A stretch of 29,406 nt of DNA from a virus: UHGV virus genome UHGV-0125383; one strand, 5' to 3'. A model generated the notes under the pieces. It did no database searches and was not told where the DNA came from. It saw only the letters and a program-made list of their open reading frames with translations. The position numbers were made by a program, and so were the translations under genes. Each line of letters begins with the position of its first letter. Positions within the stretch are counted from its first letter, which is position 1. This document shows positions 2,862-26,505 of the stretch, piece by piece.

Positions 2862-4595
2862 TTAAAGTGAACGTATGCCGTGCGTTTCAAGGCGATCAGA
2901 AAGGGTGTCAACTTTCTCATAGAGCATCAGACGGCCAATACCCATAATCAGCGCCACTGCGCCGTCGATTTTGTTTTCGTTCTGCTCTTTGATGGGCTTC
3001 ACCACATCGTCATTGCCGGGGATGTTTTTCCCTACCACGTTGGCAATACACCAGCTCATGATGGGGTTGCCGTCATGATGAAACCTGCCGGACTCAATCG
3101 CCGCTTCAAGCTCTTTCATCGGGTCTGACATGTTGGTGTAGTTCTGAATGATGGTAACGGGATTAAGCTGCTCATCCGCCAGGTCATGAGAAAGCCCGGT
3201 GGCGCCGTAGGGATCAATCGGTGACTCGGTGACCGGGTTCAGTTTGTTCGCTGCTTTGGCCTCCTCCAGAATGTAGCGGTAATCCACCTCTGCGCCATCG
3301 GTGACGGTGAGGTAACCCATCTCAACCCATTTCTGAAAGCGTTCAGCAGTGCGGCGATCCTCGTTTTTCTCCACGCTGTAAACCGTGTCATACGGTACCC
3401 AGAAGCGTGGCGCCACACTGTAATAATGCGTTTTGCCATCAATCTCGCGGGTGAACAGCCTCGCCATGCTGTTCATATCCAGTTTGCGTGCAAGGTCGAA
3501 TGCCAGCACACAGGGCTGCCCTTCGAAATGCTCGAGCGTAAGCGTTTTGTCTTCGCAGTTCTGCCAGGACACAAGGTTATAGAAAGCCGCCCGCGCCGCC
3601 ACCCAGATATTCAGATGCTTGGTTTTAAAAACGCCCGCCTGCCGGGCATTGTTAATCGCGCGCTGCTGCTGACTGAGAAGAAAATCGCGGTACACCGAGA
3701 CGCCCATATTTGGGTTCGCCTTCTCCAGCACCTTCGGATCCGTCCAGTCGTCGCCTTCATCAACCGTGTAGATGATGCCGAACAGCTCCTCGTTGGGAAC
3801 CGAGCCGTTAAGCATCTCGATCACTTCGCGGCGTTTGTCGTAGCACGGACCTTCAATGTTGTAACCGGCGGTGGTGATCGCCCACATCAGCGGCTGGCGA
3901 CGCGCGCCCATTCCGGTCAGCATGGTGGTATAGAGCGAGTCGGTCTGATGTTCGTGATATTCGTCGACGATGGCGCAGTGCGGCGACGCACCGTCGCCCG
4001 GGTTGCCAATCAGCGGTTCGAACCGCGCACCGTCCTCAGGCCGGTTCAGGTTGGAGGCATTCACCTCGATGCCGAACGCTTCGACGAGCAGCGGAGTCCG
4101 CTTGCACATCAGCCGCGCAGGACGAAACACTTCCCACGCCTGTTTTTCAGTCGTGGCGCCGGAATACACCTCCGCGCCGAATTCGTTGTCACAGGTAAAG
4201 CAGTACAGCGCCACGCCGGCGGAGATCGCCGACTTACCGTTTTTACGGGGGATCTCGGTGTAAACTTCGCGAAAGCGGCGCAGCCTTGTCCCCTTTTGCA
4301 CCCAGCCAAAGGCACAGCAGATGATGAAAAGTTGCCACGACTCCAGGGTGATCGGCATCCGTTTGAACGCCCATTCGCCCTTGGTATGCGGCAGCAATTG
4401 AATAAACTTCGCGGCCTTCTCCGCCATGTCCTTATCAAAGCGGTACCGGAATTTGCGGCTTTTCTCCTGAGCCATGTCGTCGATGTGGCGCTGGCAGGCC
4501 TGAAGCACAAACTGGCACGCGGGTATCTTTCCCCGCACAACGTTGCGGGCGTATTGATTCGCGGCGTTGACGTTAGGGTACGATTTCCGGCTCAT
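2862..4595 (-). CDS. Terminase large subunit
   Basis: 577-aa ORF. N-terminal ATPase-like region and C-terminal nuclease-like region typical of phage large terminases; overlaps the small-subunit gene stop by 4 nt (translational coupling). Confidence 0.9.
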
Positions 4596-7304: not shown

Positions 7305-8357
7305 TTATGTCTTATTCAGTTCGCGGATTTCCTCCACAGTCTGAATAAATCGCTCTGTTTCCAGCTCAACGCCGATTGCCCGTCGCCCAAGCGCCATAGC
7401 CGCTTTAATGGTTGAACCCGATCCCATGAAGAAATCAGCCACAACATCACCCGGCCTGCTGCTGGCGTTGATGATCTGCTGCAACATGTCTGCTGGCTTT
7501 TCGCATGGGTGTTTTCCGGGGTAAAACTGAACCGGTTTATGCGTCCAGACATCGGTGAAAGGAACAGAGACTGAAACAGAAAAGAACCGCCGGAGAGACC
7601 TATACTCTTCCAGCAATTCTGAATACTTCCGGTTCAACGAATGCCACGTGGCCACCAGCTGGTGGTGTGGTGTGTCGAGCTCATTGTTTCGATGCTTATC
7701 GAATGCAACCTGGGTGAACAGTTCCTGCAGTTTCTGGTAATCCGCTTCGCCTGGCAGTTGCCATTGAGAGGCTCCGAACCAGTGCGAGACCATGTTTTTC
7801 TTCCCGGTCGCATCGGCGATCTGCTTAGAGGAAACCCCAAGCGATTCACGCGCGTCACGGAAATACGAAATCAGCGGCGTCAGCACATGCTGTTTGAGCT
7901 CGTTACTTTTCTCTGCGTATCCATCACTCTTGGGCTTATACGGGCCCTGGTAATGTTCAGCGAAAAGAATGCGCTCAGTCGCCGGGAAATATGAACGCAG
8001 GCTTTCTTTGTTGCAGCCATTCCAGCGACCGGAAGGTTTTGCCCAGATGATGTGATTAAGGACACTGAACCGCTCCCGCATCATGATTTCAATATCAGAC
8101 GCAAGGCGATGCCCACAGAACAGATAAAGGCTACCGGCGGGTTTCAGAACGCGCCAGAACTCAGCCAGGTATCCATCAAGCCAGCGTAAAAAATCCTCGT
8201 CCCCTTTCCACTGGTTGTCCCATCCTTCAGGTTTCACCCTGAAGTAAGGTGGATCCGTAACGATAAGGTCAATGGAGTTATCAGGGAGAGAAGCGATGTA
8301 ATGCAGGGAGTCAGCGTTGATTAACTCAACACTGTTTATTTTTACAGTATTTTTCAT
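7305..8357 (-). CDS. DNA N6-adenine methyltransferase (beta-class: DPPY motif N-terminal, FxGxG C-terminal), probably orphan
   Basis: 350-aa ORF with VTDPPYF near the N-terminus and FFMGSGST near the C-terminus. No adjacent restriction endonuclease ORF. First gene of the late operon, between the late terminator and the holin. Confidence 0.8.
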
Positions 8358-9378: not shown

Positions 9379-10374
9379 TTATGCCAGCACACCAATTGCA
9401 AGCGCACGATCGATAAAACGAAATATCAGCTCCAGCTGCGAGCCGTATTTCTCTTCAAATGCCACGGTATCCGCATGTAGCTCGTCGTGATGCTTTCTGC
9501 ACAAAGGCAACACCCAGAGGTCATGCGCTTTTGTCCCCATACCGCCCTGACCGTGGCCTATCAGGTGGTGCGGATCATCTGCCTGCTTACCACAGCAGGC
9601 GCACGGCTGGGCCTTCACCCAGCGCGTGTATTTCTCATTTTCCCAGCGTCTCCGCTTCGGGCGTAGCATGAAGCTTTCCGGCGATTCCGGATCAATCCTG
9701 AGTGTCAGTACCTTCTTCGCCTTCTCCTGCACAATGCTGGTGGCTGGTAACGAGGGCACAATATCGCTTTCTCGCATGACGGATTTCGGCTCTTCACCCG
9801 GTAGTCGCAGCGCTTTATGTGCAACGCTTTCCGGGATCACGTCACCCAGATCATTTCTGACCATCCACCAGCACAACTCCGGGAGAGTCAGAACATGCGA
9901 CTCTGGAAAACCTAAATCCGTACGGATGACTGACATGATCCAGGATACCAGGTTTTTGCTGGCTATACCTGCAAGCTGTTCCGTGTATTGTCCAGCGAGG
10001 GTGTGGTCGCAGTGCCAGCACAACCGGATGCTCCCTGGCTTATGCCGCATTATCGTAAAATTCTTGTCGTGCCATGTTGAATGGGGCCACTGGCATTCGA
10101 ACTTTTTGTTTAACCAGCCATCAAGCGAAGACAATCCACCAGCGCGTTGAATAACGCGCTGATTTTCAAATATCCCACTCATTACCGGATCGTCTGCCAG
10201 TGGCTGAACCGCTGCCGGCACATAACCAGTTTCGTAAGAGGCCATGCTTTCAGGTTCTGGCTCGAGTAAAACCCGACCGCGCATGAATAGCGGCATCAGT
10301 TCAGCGCCAGGACGGAAAAGCACAACCCCCATTCGATGGGCTATTTCAGGTGTTAGCAGTGCTCTCAACATCAC
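9379..10374 (-). CDS. DUF968-family phage protein (YdfU-like) with C-terminal HNH-like Cys/His motif
   Basis: 331-aa ORF. C-terminal ...CACCGKQADDPHHLIGHGQGGMGTKAHDLWVLPLCRKHHDELH resembles the conserved DUF968 region of lambdoid prophage proteins (memory). Confidence 0.6.
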   Translation of the reverse strand: MMLRALLTPEIAHRMGVVLFRPGAELMPLFMRGRVLLEPEPESMASYETGYVPAAVQPLADDPVMSGIFENQRVIQRAGGLSSLDGWLNKKFECQWPHSTWHDKNFTIMRHKPGSIRLCWHCDHTLAGQYTEQLAGIASKNLVSWIMSVIRTDLGFPESHVLTLPELCWWMVRNDLGDVIPESVAHKALRLPGEEPKSVMRESDIVPSLPATSIVQEKAKKVLTLRIDPESPESFMLRPKRRRWENEKYTRWVKAQPCACCGKQADDPHHLIGHGQGGMGTKAHDLWVLPLCRKHHDELHADTVAFEEKYGSQLELIFRFIDRALAIGVLA

Positions 10375-11614: not shown

Positions 11615-12001
11615 CTAGCAAGATGATATTTTTTCCTCAAATTTCTTGATCGAGATCTCTACTCTTCCCCCTTTCACTACTGGCCCCCACTCCACCAGCA
11701 TTCTTTTTACCTGGCTGTCGTCTTCCCAGATCCCCGCATGGGTAAGAGCGTCGAACAGCGCTTTGTTGTAGTTATCCAGATCCCGGATCCGGTTGTCCGG
11801 CGGGAACAGGATTATTTCAACAGCCGCCGGTGACGATGACGGCTTCGGGAGCATGCGCAGTTGTTCAATGATTGCCGCACATGCTGACGACTGGAACTGG
11901 CGACCTTTGGCACTTATCAGGTGACGGCCGGCAAGCGGCCCCTTGTTCGGGGCGCGCCAGTACGTGTTCACACTTGGAGGAAACGGCAGCACAAGTTTCA
12001 T
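11615..12001 (-). CDS. rusA: RusA-family Holliday junction resolvase
   Basis: 128-aa ORF with the characteristic RusA motifs LPFPPSVNTYW, RDLDNYNKALFDALT and GIWEDDSQV. Confidence 0.9.
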   Translation of the reverse strand: MKLVLPFPPSVNTYWRAPNKGPLAGRHLISAKGRQFQSSACAAIIEQLRMLPKPSSSPAAVEIILFPPDNRIRDLDNYNKALFDALTHAGIWEDDSQVKRMLVEWGPVVKGGRVEISIKKFEEKISSC

Positions 12002-12318
12002 ACCCGGATCCCCTTGTTTTTGAGATAGGCGATTGCGCGGTCCTTCGCACCATCTTCACCATTCACAAGCGCATGCAGCAGGGAATCTGCATCAGCAGCG
12101 TTCTCCGGATCGTTGATGGCAATTCCCCGCGAGACACCACGCGTCAGGGTGATAGCCCCTTTCCTCTCCAGCGCGCGCAGATGATCCGCAGCGGCATTTG
12201 GCGAACTGCATCCCAGCAGTCCCGAAAGTTCTGTATTGGTTGGAGGATAGCCATGCTCGCGTTGAAAGCTGATCAGGGTATCCAGTACATGCTGCTGGCG
12301 AGCCGTTAAGTTCATCAT
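11998..12318 (-). CDS. LexA N-terminal DNA-binding domain protein (winged HTH only, no S24 peptidase domain)
   Basis: Track ORF 11998..12345. Probable start is the ATG at 12316-12318 (MMNLTARQQHVLDTL...), preceded by AAGGAGG and overlapping the C5-methyltransferase stop (ATGA). LTARQQHVLD...GYPPTNTELSGLLGCSSPNAAADHLRALERKGAI parallels the LexA DNA-binding domain (memory). The protein ends about 105 aa without a cleavage domain. Confidence 0.7.
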   Translation of the reverse strand: MMNLTARQQHVLDTLISFQREHGYPPTNTELSGLLGCSSPNAAADHLRALERKGAITLTRGVSRGIAINDPENAADADSLLHALVNGEDGAKDRAIAYLKNKGIRV

Positions 12319-14297
12319 GCTGCCTGTTCCTCCTTGCTCACACATAGCTCTGGCAGATTGGCGCGCACCAGCGCTTCAGCGAACGGTGGCGGGACTGCAT
12401 TGCCGCAGCGCGCCACTTGCTTATCTTTGGCGTACCGCTTGCCGCGATAATCCTGATCGATGATGTACCAGTCAGGGAAGCCCTGTGCGCGGTAAAGCTC
12501 GTGCGGCTGAAGCATACGCATACCGATATCGACGATGCGGTACGTTATCCCATCGATGTCGACCATCCCGGTGCATTCCTCGCCGCAGTATTCACGTAGG
12601 AACGCCAGCGCCTGCTGTGCGCGGTGTTCGTCGTAGTCTTCGACCGCCAGAGTGGTTTTGACTTCCCCGACATGCAAGCCGCCAGCCGTAACTGTCGGCA
12701 TTGGTTCACTCGTGGGCTGACCATCGCGACAGGTGCCGCGCAGTTTTACCAGGTGAGAAGCAACCACTGCATGGTGATCGACCGTCGTCACCGAGTGGAC
12801 TGGTTCATCCAGCCCGACGCCTGGCCCCGTATAGTTGCCGCCGTAATGCTTCGCCAGAAATGCGCTGGCCACGGCGAACTTGTTACCACCAGCGGTTACC
12901 GTCCCCAGCGGCTTTTCAAGCTGCAACACACGCGGGTCCTGCCCCGGCCTTTCGCCGTAACCCATCTGGATCAACGTTGGCGTCACCAGCTGTGAATGAC
13001 CGCCGCCGCCCGCCGTAATCGTCGCACTCGGCTCGTCTGCCCGGTGACCGATGCTGGCCCCAAACTGGCGAGCGATAACCGGCGCAACCAGACAGGCACG
13101 AGACTGTTTCAGGATGGTGTGAGCGGGTTTATCCAGCGGGCGCGGCTTTGCCTGGTACTCACTGCCACCATTACCAGCCAGGAACGGTGTAAGCGCGGCC
13201 TCAACGATGCCGAGGGCATGACCATTCCCGCCCGGGCGCCGTGACGTGCCGGCGGTGATTGTCGGGACTGGTTGTGTGACATCCTGCCCTGTCGCGCCTG
13301 TTCTGAACTTCGTCAGGTGCGGCACGGCAACCGCGTAACCATGCGTTTTGGTGATTGTCTGCAGCGGTTCTTCCAGCGACTGGCCCCGGAAGCAGTCGTA
13401 ATGCGTTTTGGTGCTGGTATGGTTGCACTTCACGATAAATGGCGACGCGCTGTCGATAACGAAGCGCTGAATACCGCGCGCAATGCGCTTGAGCGTATTC
13501 ACTGCCAGGGGCTTTTTGCGGTCGAAGATCGACAGCGCGGGAATGGTCCAGTCGATACACTCCGCAGCGGTGCGCCACGGCAACAGCTTGCCAGCCTGAA
13601 CCGCCGGTAACTTCGGATCCCCGTGTGTTGGCTCCGGCCACACTATCGGTTTCCCGTCACAGCGAATAACCATGAAGAAGCGTTTTCTGATCGTCGGCGC
13701 ACCGTAATCACAGGCGCGCAGTTCGCGATACTCAACGACATAACCCAGACCTTTTACCAGTCTGGCGGCGTCCTCGCTGTCGAGAGGAATACCCAGGAAT
13801 TCACAGCACTCCACCAGCGCCGGATGATCGGGAGAAATCCCCGTCGTTAGCATAGCGACGAAAGCCTGGAAGTTTTCGCCAACACGTTCAGGATCCGGGC
13901 GCATTTCACCAGCAAGAAGCGGCCCCCACGTTCTGAACTCTTCGACGTTCTCCAGCTTCATAACACGAGGCTTAACATCAAGCCCCCAGCGCAGTGTCAC
14001 CCAGGCCAGACCGCGTATCGCTTTTTCTACGGGCTTCGCACCTTTGGCTTTCGAAAAATGACGACAATCAGGACTGAACCATGCCAGGGCAACCGGTAAC
14101 CCACCCGTCGCCGCGCGCGGATCCACTTCAAATACTGATTCGCAGTAATGGAGCGTGTCCGGGTGGTTCGTCTTGTGCATCGCGATCGCGTTCTCGTCAT
14201 GGTTGATCGCGATATCAACGCTGCGACCAATCGCCATTTCAATACCTGTTGACGCGCCACCACCACCAGCAAAGTTATCAACGATAATCTCACGCAT
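12315..14297 (-). CDS. DNA cytosine-5 methyltransferase with expanded, internally repeated variable region
   Basis: 660-aa ORF with motif I FAGGGG, catalytic PC motif (FSPDCRHFS), ENV (KLENVEEF) and C-terminal GNAVPPP. The central region carries five similar modules (PTITAGTSRRPGG, SATITAGGGGHSQ, GTVTAGGNKFAV, HSVTTVDHHAV, MPTVTAGGLHVGE). Confidence 0.85.
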   Translation of the reverse strand: MREIIVDNFAGGGGASTGIEMAIGRSVDIAINHDENAIAMHKTNHPDTLHYCESVFEVDPRAATGGLPVALAWFSPDCRHFSKAKGAKPVEKAIRGLAWVTLRWGLDVKPRVMKLENVEEFRTWGPLLAGEMRPDPERVGENFQAFVAMLTTGISPDHPALVECCEFLGIPLDSEDAARLVKGLGYVVEYRELRACDYGAPTIRKRFFMVIRCDGKPIVWPEPTHGDPKLPAVQAGKLLPWRTAAECIDWTIPALSIFDRKKPLAVNTLKRIARGIQRFVIDSASPFIVKCNHTSTKTHYDCFRGQSLEEPLQTITKTHGYAVAVPHLTKFRTGATGQDVTQPVPTITAGTSRRPGGNGHALGIVEAALTPFLAGNGGSEYQAKPRPLDKPAHTILKQSRACLVAPVIARQFGASIGHRADEPSATITAGGGGHSQLVTPTLIQMGYGERPGQDPRVLQLEKPLGTVTAGGNKFAVASAFLAKHYGGNYTGPGVGLDEPVHSVTTVDHHAVVASHLVKLRGTCRDGQPTSEPMPTVTAGGLHVGEVKTTLAVEDYDEHRAQQALAFLREYCGEECTGMVDIDGITYRIVDIGMRMLQPHELYRAQGFPDWYIIDQDYRGKRYAKDKQVARCGNAVPPPFAEALVRANLPELCVSKEEQAA

Positions 14298-15168
14298 GGG
14301 TCACCCCCTGCATGCTGCTGGCAAGACCAGAGGCAACGGCAATGATCTCGCTGGTGGGCATACGTTCAAGCCATAGCTGATTGATATTGCCTTTCAGCTT
14401 GTTCTGCTGTGACTCAGTCAGGGCGTCAACGCCATCCACCTGGTTAAACACCAGACCAACCTCGAGAGGCCAGATACGCGACTCAACTTCTGGCAATACC
14501 AGCGGCGCAGTTGGCTGTACTGCTTCTTCCTGCCGGGCCTTACCAGCGGCAAATGTGACCAGCGACATAAACGCCTTCCCTTTTTCCTCCAGATCGGCAC
14601 GGCTGATGTAGCTGAAACGCTCACCGCGCCAGGACTTGTCGAACACGGCGATTGCACCAGCAAAAAATGCGCTGGTGGGCTTTTGCTTATCGTCCAAAGG
14701 AACAAACCACACAGGGAGATCGAAGCCAATGCGACCGCGAATAAACATGATGTGATCGGCATCTTCCGGCCACCAAGTTTCGCTCGGCGCGGCTTTTATC
14801 AGGAATACATAGCGACCACCCTTTTCGCGCTGGGCTGCTGCGTAATTCATAATGTGTGTCATGCCAGTGATCGCCTGCTTCTCGTGGTACTGCGAACGGC
14901 TATACGGTGGGTTGCCATAACCTGCGCCGCCAAGTTCTGCCAGACGTTCAGACCAGTCCTGCGTCAGCGCATTATCTTCGGCGGTGTACCAGACCGGACA
15001 CTTCGCGTTATCGTCGTCAGCAAACAGATCCAGAACCAACGGCCCGAATATTGCGTTGATCCCCCAAAACAACAGATCCGGAGTACGCCATTGATCGCCA
15101 ACCTCTTTCAGTTCGTGGGCTGGTTTACTGCGCAGTTCCGCCAGCGCCTGGCAATATTTGTTTATCAT
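14290..15168 (-). CDS. Phage Dam-type DNA N6-adenine methyltransferase
   Basis: 292-aa ORF with NPPY motif (GYGNPPYSRSQ); start overlaps the replication-gene stop (TAATG) and its stop region overlaps the C5-methyltransferase start by 8 nt. Confidence 0.8.
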   Translation of the reverse strand: MINKYCQALAELRSKPAHELKEVGDQWRTPDLLFWGINAIFGPLVLDLFADDDNAKCPVWYTAEDNALTQDWSERLAELGGAGYGNPPYSRSQYHEKQAITGMTHIMNYAAAQREKGGRYVFLIKAAPSETWWPEDADHIMFIRGRIGFDLPVWFVPLDDKQKPTSAFFAGAIAVFDKSWRGERFSYISRADLEEKGKAFMSLVTFAAGKARQEEAVQPTAPLVLPEVESRIWPLEVGLVFNQVDGVDALTESQQNKLKGNINQLWLERMPTSEIIAVASGLASSMQGVTHA

Positions 15169-17205: not shown

Positions 17206-17283
17206 TGTACCTCCTGTGTACATATTACACGAAAGAAATGAACCATCAAGGTACTTGTACCACTGAGGTACACATTGTTTAAT
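17206..17283. promoter_or_regulatory. Immunity-region operators and divergent promoters (PR-like leftward, PRM-like rightward)
   Basis: Two 17-bp palindromes TGTACCTCCTGTGTACA (17206-17222) and TGTACCACTGAGGTACA (17256-17272), plus a weaker TGAACCATCAAGGTACT (17239-17255). Minus-strand TTGATG (17244-17249) and TAATAT (17222-17227) fit a PR-like promoter; plus-strand TTGTAC (17255-17260) and TTTAAT (17278-17283) fit a PRM-like promoter placing the cI ATG at the transcript start (leaderless). Confidence 0.65.
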
Positions 17284-17289
17284 TTACTG

Positions 17290-17964
17290 ATGAAAACTAT
17301 CCAGGAAATCAGGCGGTTAAACGCCAGAAAATTGAGAGATGGTGTTGGCGGTAATACTTACTTTGCTAACATGATCGATCGCGAGCCAACCCAGACCAGC
17401 AGGTTCATGGGAGAAGGTGCCACCAAAGGTATTGGTGACACTATGGCCAGGCACATCGAAAAATGTTTCGATCTTCCTCAGGGGTGGTTAGATACAGAAC
17501 ATCAAACGACTAATGTTGCAAAAGAACCTGATGTTTCCGACACTAATAGAAACATTACTATGGTTCCCGTTATATCCTGGGTGCAGGCAGGAGCATGGAC
17601 CGATTCTGGTTATGCTGAGGTAGATTTGAATAGTGTTGAAACCTATCCTTGTCCCGTGCCATGCGGGCCTATGACATATATCCTGCGTGTCATTGGAGAC
17701 TCAATGATCGACGAATATCGTCCTGGCGATATGATTTTTGTCGATCCTGAGGTCGCTGCAACGCATGGTGATGATGTCATAGCCCTAATGCATGATTCTG
17801 GTGAGACAACATTTAAAAGACTTATAGAAGACAGTGGTGCAAAATTTCTCAAAGCGTTGAATCCTAACTGGCCTGAGCCATACGTCAAGATTAATGGTAA
17901 TTGCTCAATAATTGGTACTGTAGTTTTCTCAGGAAAGCCCAGAAGATACAGACATAAACCTTAA
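17290..17964 (+). CDS. CI-type prophage repressor (HTH plus S24 LexA-like autopeptidase domain)
   Basis: Track ORF 17275..17964 begins at a TTG; the first ATG is 17290 (MKTIQEIRRLNARKL...). C-terminal domain has the S24 Ser motif (GDSM) and a downstream Lys (TFKRL). Confidence 0.9.
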   Translation: MKTIQEIRRLNARKLRDGVGGNTYFANMIDREPTQTSRFMGEGATKGIGDTMARHIEKCFDLPQGWLDTEHQTTNVAKEPDVSDTNRNITMVPVISWVQAGAWTDSGYAEVDLNSVETYPCPVPCGPMTYILRVIGDSMIDEYRPGDMIFVDPEVAATHGDDVIALMHDSGETTFKRLIEDSGAKFLKALNPNWPEPYVKINGNCSIIGTVVFSGKPRRYRHKP

Positions 17965-23625: not shown

Positions 23626-24804
23626 ATGGCGGCAAGGCCAAGAAAAAAAGAATACCGACATCTGCCGGACTATCTGGTATTTGATAAAGATCGAGGTGTT
23701 TATAAATTCACACTTATTACCGGGAAGAAGAAAAATATAGGTAAGGATCGGGCCATCGCAATAGCTATCGCCAGAGAGTACAACCTGAGGATGAGACCTG
23801 AACTTTCCCCGTCGGTTGATAATCTCATTAGAGAATCTGGTGGGGTTACTGGAGAAGCCAAACCATTTGCTGAACATGTGGATCACATAATGGAACGTGC
23901 TATTGAGGACGAGCGCCCTTCTCAGAGCACCCTGGATGACTGGAATAATGACGCACTACGCGTAAAAGAGTTTTTCGTTAATGTTCCTGCCTGCGATATC
24001 GAGTTGGAGCATGTTAACGCATACATCAATCAATACCATGCCGGCGCGTCTGCGAACGTGCAAAACAGAAAAGTCAGCTTCCTTAAAAAGCTGTTTTCGT
24101 ATGCGGTCGATGAATCCCTGATGCTCGATAATCCGGCAACCCGGAAGAAAATGCGCAGGACCGAAGAGAAGAAAAGACAACGCCTGTCGCTCGATCATTT
24201 CATGGCTATCCGGCGCGCTGCAGCACCATGGTTAAGAACGGCAATGGACCTGGCTCTACAGACGACACATGCGCGCCTCGAAGTCTCGAGGATCCGTTAT
24301 TCAATTCGCGAACCCAAAAACGGTATATGTGGTTGTGTCTGGCTCGATCAGCCAGAGAACGGTATCTATGGAACACTATACATACACCGCCAAAAGGTAC
24401 AGAAGAAGGAGGCGTCGCACGTTGCGATCCCCATAGGTGATGAGTTAAAACGCATCATTGATGATAGCCGGGATAATGTGGCCAGTCCGTATGTTGTTCA
24501 TCGGATCCCGGAACGACAGGTTAAACGGAGCAAAGAAGTCTCGCATCCCACCCAGGTGGCCCCGGATTATTTAAGCAGGTCATTCTCTGCTGTCCGCGAC
24601 AGGCTCGGGTTATGCAATCACCTCGCAATGGATGAAAGACCGACCTTCCATGAAATACGAGCTTTGGCTGCTCACCTGTTTGATAAACAGGGCATAGATC
24701 CGCAAGGCAGAATGGCGCATAGCGATGCAAAGTCTACGAAAATTTATACCCAGAATCATATAGATTGGGTGGTAGTTCCACATGGCGAAATCAGAACTGG
24801 ATGA
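23626..24804 (+). CDS. int: Tyrosine integrase, lambda Int family
   Basis: 392-aa ORF. N-terminal arm-binding-like region (KEYRHLPDYLVF) and C-terminal catalytic region (RPTFHEIRALAAHLFDKQ ... AHSDAKSTKIYT) parallel lambda Int (memory). Confidence 0.92.
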   Translation: MAARPRKKEYRHLPDYLVFDKDRGVYKFTLITGKKKNIGKDRAIAIAIAREYNLRMRPELSPSVDNLIRESGGVTGEAKPFAEHVDHIMERAIEDERPSQSTLDDWNNDALRVKEFFVNVPACDIELEHVNAYINQYHAGASANVQNRKVSFLKKLFSYAVDESLMLDNPATRKKMRRTEEKKRQRLSLDHFMAIRRAAAPWLRTAMDLALQTTHARLEVSRIRYSIREPKNGICGCVWLDQPENGIYGTLYIHRQKVQKKEASHVAIPIGDELKRIIDDSRDNVASPYVVHRIPERQVKRSKEVSHPTQVAPDYLSRSFSAVRDRLGLCNHLAMDERPTFHEIRALAAHLFDKQGIDPQGRMAHSDAKSTKIYTQNHIDWVVVPHGEIRTG

Positions 24805-24809
24805 AGTGC

Positions 24810-25030
24810 ATGATTTGTCAAATGACATGTAAATGGACCACGTACCGACCTTGTCAACAAAGGCAAAAAGAACTATTACTTTAATATGTAAAATTGAAGT
24901 TCATAAGAGTGCAAGACTAACCATTTGTTTTTAAATAAAAATAAATCTTAGACTCACTTTTCTGAAACTGTACTAATCTATTGTCAAGTGCGTACCGCTC
25001 TTGGTACTATTCAGTCAACAAAGGTTTCAC
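24810..25030. other. Candidate attachment-site region (arm-type repeats) immediately downstream of int
   Basis: AT-rich. Palindrome TGTCAAATGACA (24816-24827); direct repeats CGTACCGACCTTGTCAACAAAGG (24841-24863) and CGTACCGCTC...AGTCAACAAAGG (24991-25024); TTGTCAAG (24981-24988). The GTCA-core repeats resemble lambda-type arm sites; this is inference. Confidence 0.3.
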
Positions 25031-25081
25031 AACAAACTGAAGTTCTAACCCACACAGTAGGTACAACAAGGAGAGGCTTAT

Positions 25082-25117
25082 ATGAAAAACTTCGCTATCG
25101 GTTACGGGGAAGGTTAA
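25082..25117 (+). CDS. Putative leader peptide (11 codons, MKNFAIGYGEG)
   Basis: ATG 25082 preceded by AAGGAGAGG SD at 8-nt spacing; stop 25115-25117; followed 20 nt later by an intrinsic terminator and then the 333-aa gene. Confidence 0.35.
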   Translation: MKNFAIGYGEG

Positions 25118-25137
25118 GTCTTAACGTGCATTGAACT

Positions 25138-25165
25138 AAACTCCTCATTTTGAGGAGTTTTTTTT
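25138..25165 (+). terminator. Intrinsic terminator / attenuator between the leader ORF and the membrane-protein gene
   Basis: AAACTCCTCA-TTTT-GAGGAG followed by eight T's. Confidence 0.7.
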
Positions 25166-25187
25166 CATCTTCTATAAGGTTTTCAGA

Positions 25188-26189
25188 ATGTACCGATGGA
25201 TAAAAAGTAAAACTAAAACATTGCTTGGTGTTCTAGTTGGCATCTTGATCAGCCTGATAGTTACGAGAATTTTGTTGAATGTGAATGCAGTACAAACTGC
25301 ATCTTGGTTTTACGCAGTGTTTGATGCTGGACTAATGATTACGTTCGCAACATTTACAGCTCTATACAGCGTGTACAAAATCAGTAACAAATTTCCAGAT
25401 ACAAACCCACTGTTACCTCTTTTCGGAGTCATAGTTTGGGTGCTTTTCCTGCTGGCATACTATGTACTTCGATACAATAATACTTACCAAACTGCGCTTT
25501 CAATCATTGTTGCCGGTTCGATTGCTGGGATGGGATGGTGGATCCAATTCATTACTTCTGCAGCCAGTGATCGAAGAAAACATACTTTGAATGTTGTTCT
25601 TAGTACAAGAACATGTACCGAATACCAAACTCATTTGCGTAACTTCACACACTTATGGAGAGGCAATCGCCATGCTCCAAAAGAGCTATGTGTTTGGAGA
25701 GACGACCCTGATCATCCAAAATTCAAAGATGCTAAAGTCCCTGATGAAGTCGTAAATGGGATTAACGGATTAGTATACATTCTTAATTTCTTTGAATTTT
25801 TAGCCCAAGGAATTAAGGCTAACGACCTTGATGAGAAACTCCTCCGAGAGTGCTTTTGTGGGTTTTTAGAGGGGCTTGAAAGAAGAGCATTTTTCATTCT
25901 CCTCGAAGCACAAAAAAGAGATGAACGTTACTTTGAAGGCATTATTTTCCTGTGCAAACGTTGGAATAATGAAAAATCGTTAGTTGAAAAACATCGTCAC
26001 TCAGCACCTCCTGCTGATATAGGTATTTGCCATCCATCTCAAGCAGAAATCATGAAAATGCTCGGTATTAAAGATGTGACTAATTCAAAGCCGAAAAAAA
26101 GACGGAGACGCCGTTCCGCTATAGTTCAGCAAGCGGAAGCAGCGAATGTAGCGGAACTAAATCCAACGCAGTCAGCTGCACCTCAATAA
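25188..26189 (+). CDS. Membrane-anchored protein of unknown function (333 aa): four N-terminal transmembrane helices plus cytoplasmic domain; candidate moron/exclusion factor
   Basis: Track ORF in visibly AT-rich DNA between int and the tRNA fragment. Four hydrophobic helices in residues about 10-121, a roughly 200-aa soluble domain, and a basic tail (KPKKRRRRRS). No family recognised. Confidence 0.6.
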   Translation: MYRWIKSKTKTLLGVLVGILISLIVTRILLNVNAVQTASWFYAVFDAGLMITFATFTALYSVYKISNKFPDTNPLLPLFGVIVWVLFLLAYYVLRYNNTYQTALSIIVAGSIAGMGWWIQFITSAASDRRKHTLNVVLSTRTCTEYQTHLRNFTHLWRGNRHAPKELCVWRDDPDHPKFKDAKVPDEVVNGINGLVYILNFFEFLAQGIKANDLDEKLLRECFCGFLEGLERRAFFILLEAQKRDERYFEGIIFLCKRWNNEKSLVEKHRHSAPPADIGICHPSQAEIMKMLGIKDVTNSKPKKRRRRRSAIVQQAEAANVAELNPTQSAAPQ

Positions 26190-26324
26190 TTTACTGGGGA
26201 ATAACTACACCTTAAGTCATTGATGTATATAGAGCGGCTTTTGTAAAAAATGCACTGTTTGTTTATACATACGAATGGTTAGCAACGCCAGACACGGAGC
26301 GACTTACAGAGCTTTCAAAGCGGT

Positions 26325-26372
26325 GTCATGGGGTGTCGGGGGTCGGAGGTTCAAATCCTCTCGTGCCGACCA
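26325..26372 (+). tRNA. Partial tRNA-Pro gene: 3' 48 nt only (T-arm, acceptor 3' strand, CCA); att-core relic, not a functional tRNA
   Basis: GTCATGGGGTGTCGGGGGTCGGAGGTTCAAATCCTCTCGTGCCGACCA matches, from memory, the 3' part of enterobacterial proL (tRNA-Pro GGG). The 77 nt ending at 26372 cannot form an acceptor stem (5' side reads GGAGCGA, not CGGCACG), so the 5' half is absent. Confidence 0.7.
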
Positions 26373-26383
26373 AAATTCCCCAG

Positions 26384-26414
26384 AAAAACCAGCCTTTTAC
26401 GGCTGGTTTTTTTT
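26384..26414 (+). terminator. Bidirectional rho-independent terminator just 3' of the tRNA fragment
   Basis: AAAAA-CCAGCC-TTTTAC-GGCTGG-TTTTTTTT. Confidence 0.75.
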
Positions 26415-26505
26415 ATTATTGCCGTCCACCGAAATGGAATTCGATTCGAGTTATGGACGGAAATAATGTTACACTTCCGGTTTTGCACAGCCGATCTTAT
26501 TGCTT

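Follow-up and report, generated by a model that had tools for sequence, protein, structure and literature searches.

Seven tandem cassettes in the variable region of a prophage C5-cytosine methyltransferase as plausible target-recognition units

The virus genome UHGV-0125383, analyzed here as one stretch of 29,406 nucleotides (the window), is a lambdoid prophage that carries in its early operon, at 12315-14297 on the minus strand, the gene of an oversized C5-cytosine DNA methyltransferase of 660 amino acids (aa). The variable region of this enzyme is a tandem array of seven related cassettes, followed by the vestige of an eighth. On balance, we lean towards reading the protein as an orphan anti-restriction methyltransferase in which a single catalytic core would use the cassettes as alternative recognition units, which would place the principle of the Bacillus-phage SPR enzyme in an unrelated lineage. 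A multispecific enzyme of this kind is plausible, with indirect support, because the enzyme belongs to a large family, whole cassettes are gained and lost amongst relatives, and relatives from Paracoccus confer broad, partial protection against restriction.

Cassette array and catalytic motifs

The array occupies residues 286-550, between motifs VIII and IX, where alignment by eye and with MAFFT resolved seven tandem cassettes of 35-45 aa plus the vestigial eighth. The frame common to the cassettes is a strand, a Gly-rich loop, the core (D/E)xPxxT(I/V)T, a second loop and a second strand or, in residue terms, [P/A/S]-h-L, the Gly-rich loop, (D/E)-x-P-x-x-T-(I/V)-T, the second loop and h-V. Seven matches to the pattern P..[TS][IV][TL] are present, at spacings of 32-48 aa, and shuffled versions of the protein contained at most two occurrences (0 of 20,000 shuffles reaching seven). 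Similarity between the cassettes was detected by pairwise Smith-Waterman comparisons with shuffles and then with profiles; against a module profile made from the cassettes, with iteration over 270 proteins of the family, all seven were significant, with independent E-values (i-E) from 2e-9 to 8e-15. The earlier note on this DNA had described five similar units. All five exist (cores at residues 346, 426, 466, 503 and 535), and the count becomes seven with two that had been missed, LEEPLQTITKTHGYAVA (core at 314) and LDKPAHTILKQSRACLV (core at 394), to which the vestige at 563-583 is added. The cassettes, with letters designating sequence types, are as follows, the last column giving the basis of each assignment.

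13326-13442, minus strand: cassette 1, type C, residues 286-324, PFIVKCNH...LEEPLQTITKTHGYAVA; profile i-E 6e-10
13194-13325, minus strand: cassette 2, type A, residues 325-368, PHLTKFRTGATGQDVTQPVPTITAGTSRRPGG; profile i-E 9e-11
13086-13193, minus strand: cassette 3, type H, residues 369-404, PFLAGNGGSEYQAKPRPLDKPAHTILKQSRACLV; profile i-E 2e-9
12981-13085, minus strand: cassette 4, type G, residues 405-439, PVIARQFGASIGHRADEPSATITAGGGGHSQLVT; profile i-E 7e-11
12864-12980, minus strand: cassette 5, type E, residues 440-478, PTLIQMGYGERPGQDPRVLQLEKPLGTVTAGGNKFAVAS; module profile and homologue comparison
12759-12863, minus strand: cassette 6, type D, residues 479-513, AFLAKHYGGNYTGPGVGLDEPVHSVTTVDHHAVVA; profile i-E 2e-14
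12648-12758, minus strand: cassette 7, type A, residues 514-550, SHLVKLRGTCRDGQPTSEPMPTVTAGGLHVGEVKTTL; profile i-E 8e-15
12549-12611, minus strand: vestige of an eighth cassette, type B, residues 563-583, ALAFLREYCGEECTGMVDIDG, TxT core deleted; family consensus

The core of cassette 3 reads T-I-L (HTILKQ). At the position of the vestige the family consensus is RAFLxKYYG...PLHTxTTKDRxGLVTV, and most relatives carry an intact cassette there, just before motif IX.

No tandem repeat was found in the window DNA by Tandem Repeats Finder. The repetition is visible at the protein level only, and the cassette copies are therefore old and diverged. Self-comparison of the 660-aa protein by BLASTP listed no off-diagonal pairs. 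A recent duplication as the origin of the cassettes was considered and rejected, given their divergence and the conservation of cassette types across bacterial classes.

That the product of 12315-14297 is a genuine C5-cytosine DNA methyltransferase, as had been proposed from the sequence, was confirmed at several levels. The protein matches PF00145 at 70.4 bits (cut-off, 22) in three stretches, one of which (residues 586-645, covering motif IX) maps to profile positions 268-320, and it matches PHROG 23072 and 116, both annotated 'DNA methyltransferase'. Two AlphaFold2 runs, one on the window protein (40 aligned sequences) and one on P0134, a natural five-cassette relative (58 more colinear sequences), both gave a confident catalytic domain, block-mean values of the predicted local distance difference test (pLDDT) being mostly 85-97 in the window model, and the catalytic part of the model matched 3g7u, DNMT1, M.HhaI and M.HaeIII with E-values of 1e-7 to 1e-10 in Foldseek. 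The order of motifs I, IV, VI, VIII, IX and X in the translation is canonical; amongst these, I, IV, VI and X had already been recognized in the earlier note.

12315-14297, minus strand: C5-cytosine DNA methyltransferase gene, 660 aa (open reading frame, PF00145, PHROG and model fold)
14256-14273, minus strand: motif I, FAGGGG, residues 9-14, S-adenosylmethionine binding (translation; G11-G14 invariant in alignment A2)
14052-14075, minus strand: motif IV, SPDCRHFS, residues 75-82, catalytic Cys78 in a P-D-C context (translation)
13944-13952, minus strand: motif VI, ENV, residues 116-118 (translation; E116, N117 and V118 invariant in A2)
13674-13688, minus strand: motif VIII, RKRFF, residues 204-208 (aligned to QNRERLY of SPR and to 3g7u)
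12474-12518, minus strand: motif IX, RMLQPHELYRAQGFP, residues 594-608 (aligned to 3g7u and DNMT1)
12384-12404, minus strand: motif X, GNAVPPP, residues 632-638 (translation, Pfam and alignment; invariant in A2)

Between motifs VI and VIII the protein also contains an insert of ~31 aa, LTTGISPDHPALVECCEFLGIPLDSEDAARLV (window 13752-13850, minus strand, ~residues 150-182), which is predicted with high confidence to be helical, and some close homologues (P0044, P0065) have an additional insert of 21 aa near residue 128. Across window positions 12000-14500, the G+C fraction of the C5 gene (0.59-0.61) is above that of its flanks (0.48-0.53), which may stem from the Gly/Pro/Ala-rich cassettes or from a foreign origin.

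Cassette exchange and cassette types amongst relatives

Close homologues of 619-712 aa, at 82-97% identity, are common in prophages of Salmonella, Citrobacter, Enterobacter and Klebsiella, and their differences in length are whole-cassette steps. Amongst the 120 closest (identity at or above 82%), four arrangements were counted.

C-A-H-G-E-D-L-A: 72 of 120
C-A-H-G-D-A: 28 of 120
C-A-H-G-E-D-A, that of the window protein: 19 of 120
C-A-H-G-E-D-H-A: 1 of 120

Cassette 5 (type E) is missing as a clean unit of 39 aa from 28 of these 120 proteins. Single cassettes are gained and lost cleanly on a nearly identical backbone.

An exhaustive search at E<1e-30 placed the window protein in a family of 2,542 clusters (50% identity). 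In the best 150 of the 2,542 cluster representatives, the number of cassettes per protein lay between 0 and 12 and was most often 7. A short natural member, of 517 aa, has the form C-E-D-A-B. Clustering of the cassettes gave at least 14 sequence types, in ~144 arrangements amongst 149 representatives. Where present, each type other than A averaged 1.00-1.18 copies per protein, about one, while the presence of a type varied from 6 to 134 of the 149 representatives. The order of cassettes is partly conserved across the family, with C first, E before D and A-B last, and type B is terminal in 127 of the 149. Residues that differ from type to type but are conserved inside each type are concentrated in two stretches, which follow directly on the first strand and on the TxT core; Pro and Thr of the core hardly vary. 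A like pattern, on an E-I-B frame, was seen in a separate set of Rhodobacteraceae genomes obtained by a genome scan seeded with the Paracoccus phage protein Pyei1_p05; Paracoccus aminophilus was not among the genomes returned. The chromosome of Paracoccus sp. ME4 holds four family copies at different sites (L012, L015, L040 and L049), presumably in different prophages; three have readable cassettes, with the arrangement AAEIB twice and CFEIGB once. By tblastn, the family was found in 118 phage records, mainly from phages of Pseudomonas, Vibrio, Aeromonas, Burkholderia, Rhizobium and enterobacteria.

Members of this family have been assayed previously. The Paracoccus aminophilus prophage enzymes JCM7686_0772 and JCM7686_2655, expressed in E. 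coli, showed 'relaxed substrate specificity' (PMC3925955), and the DNA was partially protected against 16 of 28 restriction enzymes (PMC3925955, Additional file 8). These were AluI (AGCT), BglI, Bme1390I (CCNGG), BsuRI (GGCC), CaiI, EcoO109I, EcoRII (CCWGG), Hin6I (GCGC), HpaII and MspI (both CCGG), HpyF10VI, NciI, PauI, PvuII, TaiI (ACGT) and XhoI; the sites CGCG, TCGCGA, GATC, GGNNCC, CCWWGG, CTAG, CATG, GANTC, CCGCTC, ACGCGT and CCATGG were unprotected (PMC3925955). Aeromonas ARM81 phage enzymes are similarly relaxed in specificity (PMC5537653).

Homology of the window protein to the assayed Paracoccus enzymes was measured through Pyei1_p05, which is reported to be ~69% identical to both (PMC6536676). 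The window protein and Pyei1_p05 are 42% identical over their full length (E=4e-167). Pyei1_p05 has no counterpart of the ~31-aa insert between motifs VI and VIII, and its eight cassettes belong to this family too, the shared types being A, H, N, E, I, B and G; its type E is 82% identical to the catalogued type-E cassettes. The Sinorhizobium phage protein phi2LM21_p23 is 36% identical to the window protein at 99% coverage. The relationship to Pyei1_p05 also bears on motif IV, in which the catalytic Cys is preceded by Asp (P-D-C) as opposed to the canonical Pro-Cys dipeptide. The form PDC[KTR]HFS is the norm across the whole family, and the variant is probably functional because PDCKHFS is found in Pyei1_p05, a close relative of the active Paracoccus enzymes. 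The window protein is presumed to be active.

Were the enzyme multispecific, its single catalytic core would work in turn with different cassettes, for which the SPR and phi3T enzymes provide a precedent, and each cassette would direct the core to its own short DNA sequence through a type-specific part made of two loops on the conserved frame. During lytic growth, phage DNA would then be methylated at many kinds of site, thereby escaping several restriction systems of the host. A more far-reaching proposal, to which we give somewhat less than an even chance, is that the whole family is a combinatorial system, in which at least 14 interchangeable recognition cassettes of ~35 aa, two to 12 per enzyme, would each set a different target and be reshuffled to track the restriction repertoires of hosts.

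Alternative explanations of the array

Several observations weigh against the cassettes being separate recognition units. In the AlphaFold2 models the cassettes have no confident fold, with block-mean pLDDT values of ~25-40 in the window protein and ~35-63 in P0134; a beta-hairpin at pLDDT 60-70 is seen in cassette 7 of the window model. Structure prediction had been suggested in the earlier note as a means of telling separate lobes from a single solenoid, and in the AlphaFold2 runs the confidence of the cassettes was too low to read either. The low values would fit flexible units that become ordered on DNA, and would equally fit an alignment too poor for the repeats.

Comparison with proven recognition domains, for which the SPR, rho11s, H2 and phi3T gene sequences were fetched and those of M.HhaI and M.HaeIII were confirmed against the PDB, also counts largely on the negative side. 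On the four Bacillus enzymes the module profile scored ~0 bits (i-E 0.04-0.7 with Z=1), its only matches being the T(I/L/V)T cores in the variable region (SPTITT, PTLTTM and EPAFTVNTIDRH). Its only match in M.HaeIII, again at ~0 bits, was NEPAFTVQASGRQC at 232-245 (core copy NEPAFTVQASG), and M.HhaI gave no match to it. According to the Trautner-group papers and the M.HaeIII structure, these cores of the Bacillus enzymes and M.HaeIII reportedly lie inside the target-recognition regions. Alignment of the cassettes with the Bacillus recognition segments by hhalign returned a probability of 4%, and a profile of 66 cassettes had no match at E<=10 amongst all PDB sequences. The core of cassette 6 does resemble the SPR segment EPAFTVNTIDRHGV (Smith-Waterman z=5.9, 0 of 500 shuffles). 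Sequence homology to proven recognition domains was examined as a claim and set aside, as the matches were confined to the core at ~0 bits and hhalign gave so low a probability. The analogy with SPR and phi3T drawn in the earlier note thus holds for the tandem-module architecture and the shared core motif and fails for sequence kinship, the best BLASTP E-value between the window protein and the SPR, phi3T, rho11s and H2 enzymes being 0.035. Since there is no detectable sequence relation to SPR, and no solved structure contains the cassette as judged by sequence, the likeness to the Bacillus enzymes lies in architecture and core motif and does not make the window protein a member of their family.

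The remaining unfavorable points come from the biology of the family and lead to other explanations of the array. Relaxed, partial protection such as that given by the relatives would also be expected from one degenerate recognition surface, and a partly conserved cassette order from a single fixed superstructure. Both fit an array in which the cassettes stack into one extended DNA-binding surface of relaxed, short or degenerate specificity, the number of cassettes tuning affinity or reach, and the weak similarity to proven recognition domains points the same way. We regard this, the main rival, as rather unlikely. A generic stacking unit has no need for types that each occur about once per protein and vary widely in presence. 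Phages of Alpha- and Gammaproteobacteria have type-specific residues in common (82% identity in type E); lone cassettes are lost and gained without other change, and AlphaFold2 predicted no compact repeat fold. Additionally, CGCG, CCWWGG, GGNNCC and CCATGG were left wholly unprotected by the Paracoccus enzymes, and the methylation by these relatives is therefore not simply context-free. A multispecific enzyme is preferred over a degenerate surface because of the once-per-protein rule, the type-specific conservation of the loops and the clean gain and loss of single cassettes.

The degenerate core of cassette 3 and the vestigial state of the cassette adjoining motif IX, together with the inactivity of phi2LM21_p23 in E. 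coli (PMC5537653), would be explained if most cassettes were inactive relics and only one or two sequences were methylated through the last intact cassette or cassettes. Pseudo-domains, which Lange et al. reportedly described in 1991 in multispecific enzymes of Bacillus, were also counted for such relics. We find this explanation improbable, considering that all seven cassettes have strong family-profile scores, that conservation of their types between distant hosts speaks for purifying selection on each, and that the tested relatives protect many unrelated sites. Lastly, the methylation may serve phage replication, packaging or gene regulation instead of restriction evasion, with the repeats used for another interaction. 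The Warsaw group pointed out that such genes adjoin replication modules and raised, as a speculation, that they act in replication (PMC5537653), and the window gene lies directly after the replication and Dam-family genes. A function of that kind would call for fixed specificity and architecture, yet the cassette set changes amongst nearly identical prophages, and both the three methyltransferase genes of this prophage and the broad protection by relatives fit anti-restriction; it is accordingly the explanation we consider very improbable.

Genomic context and known systems

Past a cI-like repressor gene on the plus strand (17275-17964), the minus strand of the prophage carries in order CII-like, replication, Dam-family, C5, LexA-like, RusA, ORF6N and DUF968 genes. 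The immediate neighbors of the C5 gene are the following.

14290-15168, minus strand: Dam-family N6-adenine methyltransferase gene, upstream (PF05869, 3.3e-42)
11998 to 12318 (up to 12345), minus strand: small gene with a LexA DNA-binding domain, downstream, overlapping the end of the C5 gene (PF01726, 3.9e-19)

The stop of the Dam gene overlaps the start of the C5 gene by 8 nucleotides, and a Dam plus C5 pairing is also annotated in E. coli prophages and in Pseudomonas phage F116. For the LexA-like gene, the gene call in L009 has a 4-nucleotide overlap. In phage F116 a 'LexA-like protein' gene is found beside an adenine-C5-adenine methyltransferase trio (LexA-type gene at L007 1221-1430), and regulation of the methyltransferase cluster by the LexA-like gene may be conserved. 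No restriction endonuclease gene was found amongst the neighbors or elsewhere in the prophage window, in agreement with the earlier observation that a cognate endonuclease is absent. The interval from the immunity region to the C5 gene has no strong promoter-like site, and this, with the gene overlaps, makes it a reasonable inference that the gene is expressed from the early rightward operon after induction. Given its place in that operon, which it shares with the Dam-family gene, the C5 gene would be off in the lysogen and come on when the prophage is induced.

Elsewhere in the window, a third methyltransferase gene, of N6/N4 type (7305-8357, minus strand; PF01555, 4e-44), is located upstream of the terminase (2862-4595) and portal (1453-2688) genes, and the phage thus has Dam-type, C5 and N6/N4 methyltransferases. 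The DUF968 gene (9379-10374, minus strand) has a weak HNH-nuclease-like match and is of the lambdoid nin-region type, not a restriction partner. A lambda-type integrase gene (23626-24804, plus strand) is followed by a stretch of low G+C (0.39-0.42, 24500-26500) with a DUF4760 reading frame, beyond which a family-2 glycosyltransferase and a DUF6056 protein are encoded (region to 29356, plus strand); these last two look like a gtr-type module for O-antigen modification (serotype conversion).

Both the enzyme family and its broad protective phenotype are known from publications, and the principle of tandem recognition domains is established. That the proteobacterial family is assembled from many short cassettes in changing combinations appears to be undescribed in the literature searched, which yielded no account of a multispecific C5 enzyme in enterobacteria and none of tandem recognition cassettes in these proteins; in PMC5537653 the terms 'target recognition' and 'multispecific' are absent, and no repeated or modular recognition region is mentioned. 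If the cassettes are independent, the natural one-cassette variants CAHGDA, CAHGEDA and CAHGEDLA would allow a DNA motif to be assigned to each cassette type, and the anti-restriction repertoire of a phage could be read from its sequence. The family would also offer a tractable system for the old open question of how several recognition domains and a single catalytic core work together; we know of no structure of a multispecific C5 enzyme. If the combinatorial proposal is true, these would be the most multispecific DNA methyltransferases known, and the Bacillus-phage principle would extend, via an unrelated lineage, to phages of Proteobacteria. On the practical side, prophage induction could yield DNA heavily marked with 5-methylcytosine, which would escape type II restriction and be a target for McrBC-type systems.

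Amongst known systems, the Bacillus-phage enzymes M.SPRI, M.Phi3TI, M.Rho11sI and M.H2I resemble the window protein in design. Like it, they are phage-borne orphans with one catalytic core and tandem units of ~40 aa between motifs VIII and IX, each unit having a T(I/L/V)T core, and evasion of several restriction systems is the function proposed for both. They differ in the number of units, the Bacillus-phage enzymes having 2-4, the window protein 7 and other members of its family as many as 12, and in the catalytic motif, which is P-C in the former and P-D-C in the latter; multispecificity is genetically proven for the Bacillus-phage enzymes, whereas for the window protein it is inferred. M.HaeIII and M.HhaI have the same catalytic fold but a single recognition domain and one target sequence. 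M.phiBssHII, an enzyme of a Bacillus prophage with five specificities, reportedly has its recognition domains at separate locations and not in one continuous array. It is cited in PMC8936443 and is a phage-derived multispecific C5 enzyme, as is proposed here for the window protein.

The nearest characterized relatives are the relaxed 5-methylcytosine enzymes of proteobacterial phages, of ~700 aa (JCM7686_0772, JCM7686_2655, Pyei1_p05, phi2LM21_p23, ARM81mr_p29 and ARM81ld_p31), with which the window protein shares the P-D-C motif. Their genes and the window gene alike are placed near replication genes and an adenine methyltransferase gene, and the window gene fits the family trait of an orphan in an early or replication module with an N6-adenine methyltransferase gene alongside. 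The window protein differs from them in its set of cassettes and in having no intact type B cassette.

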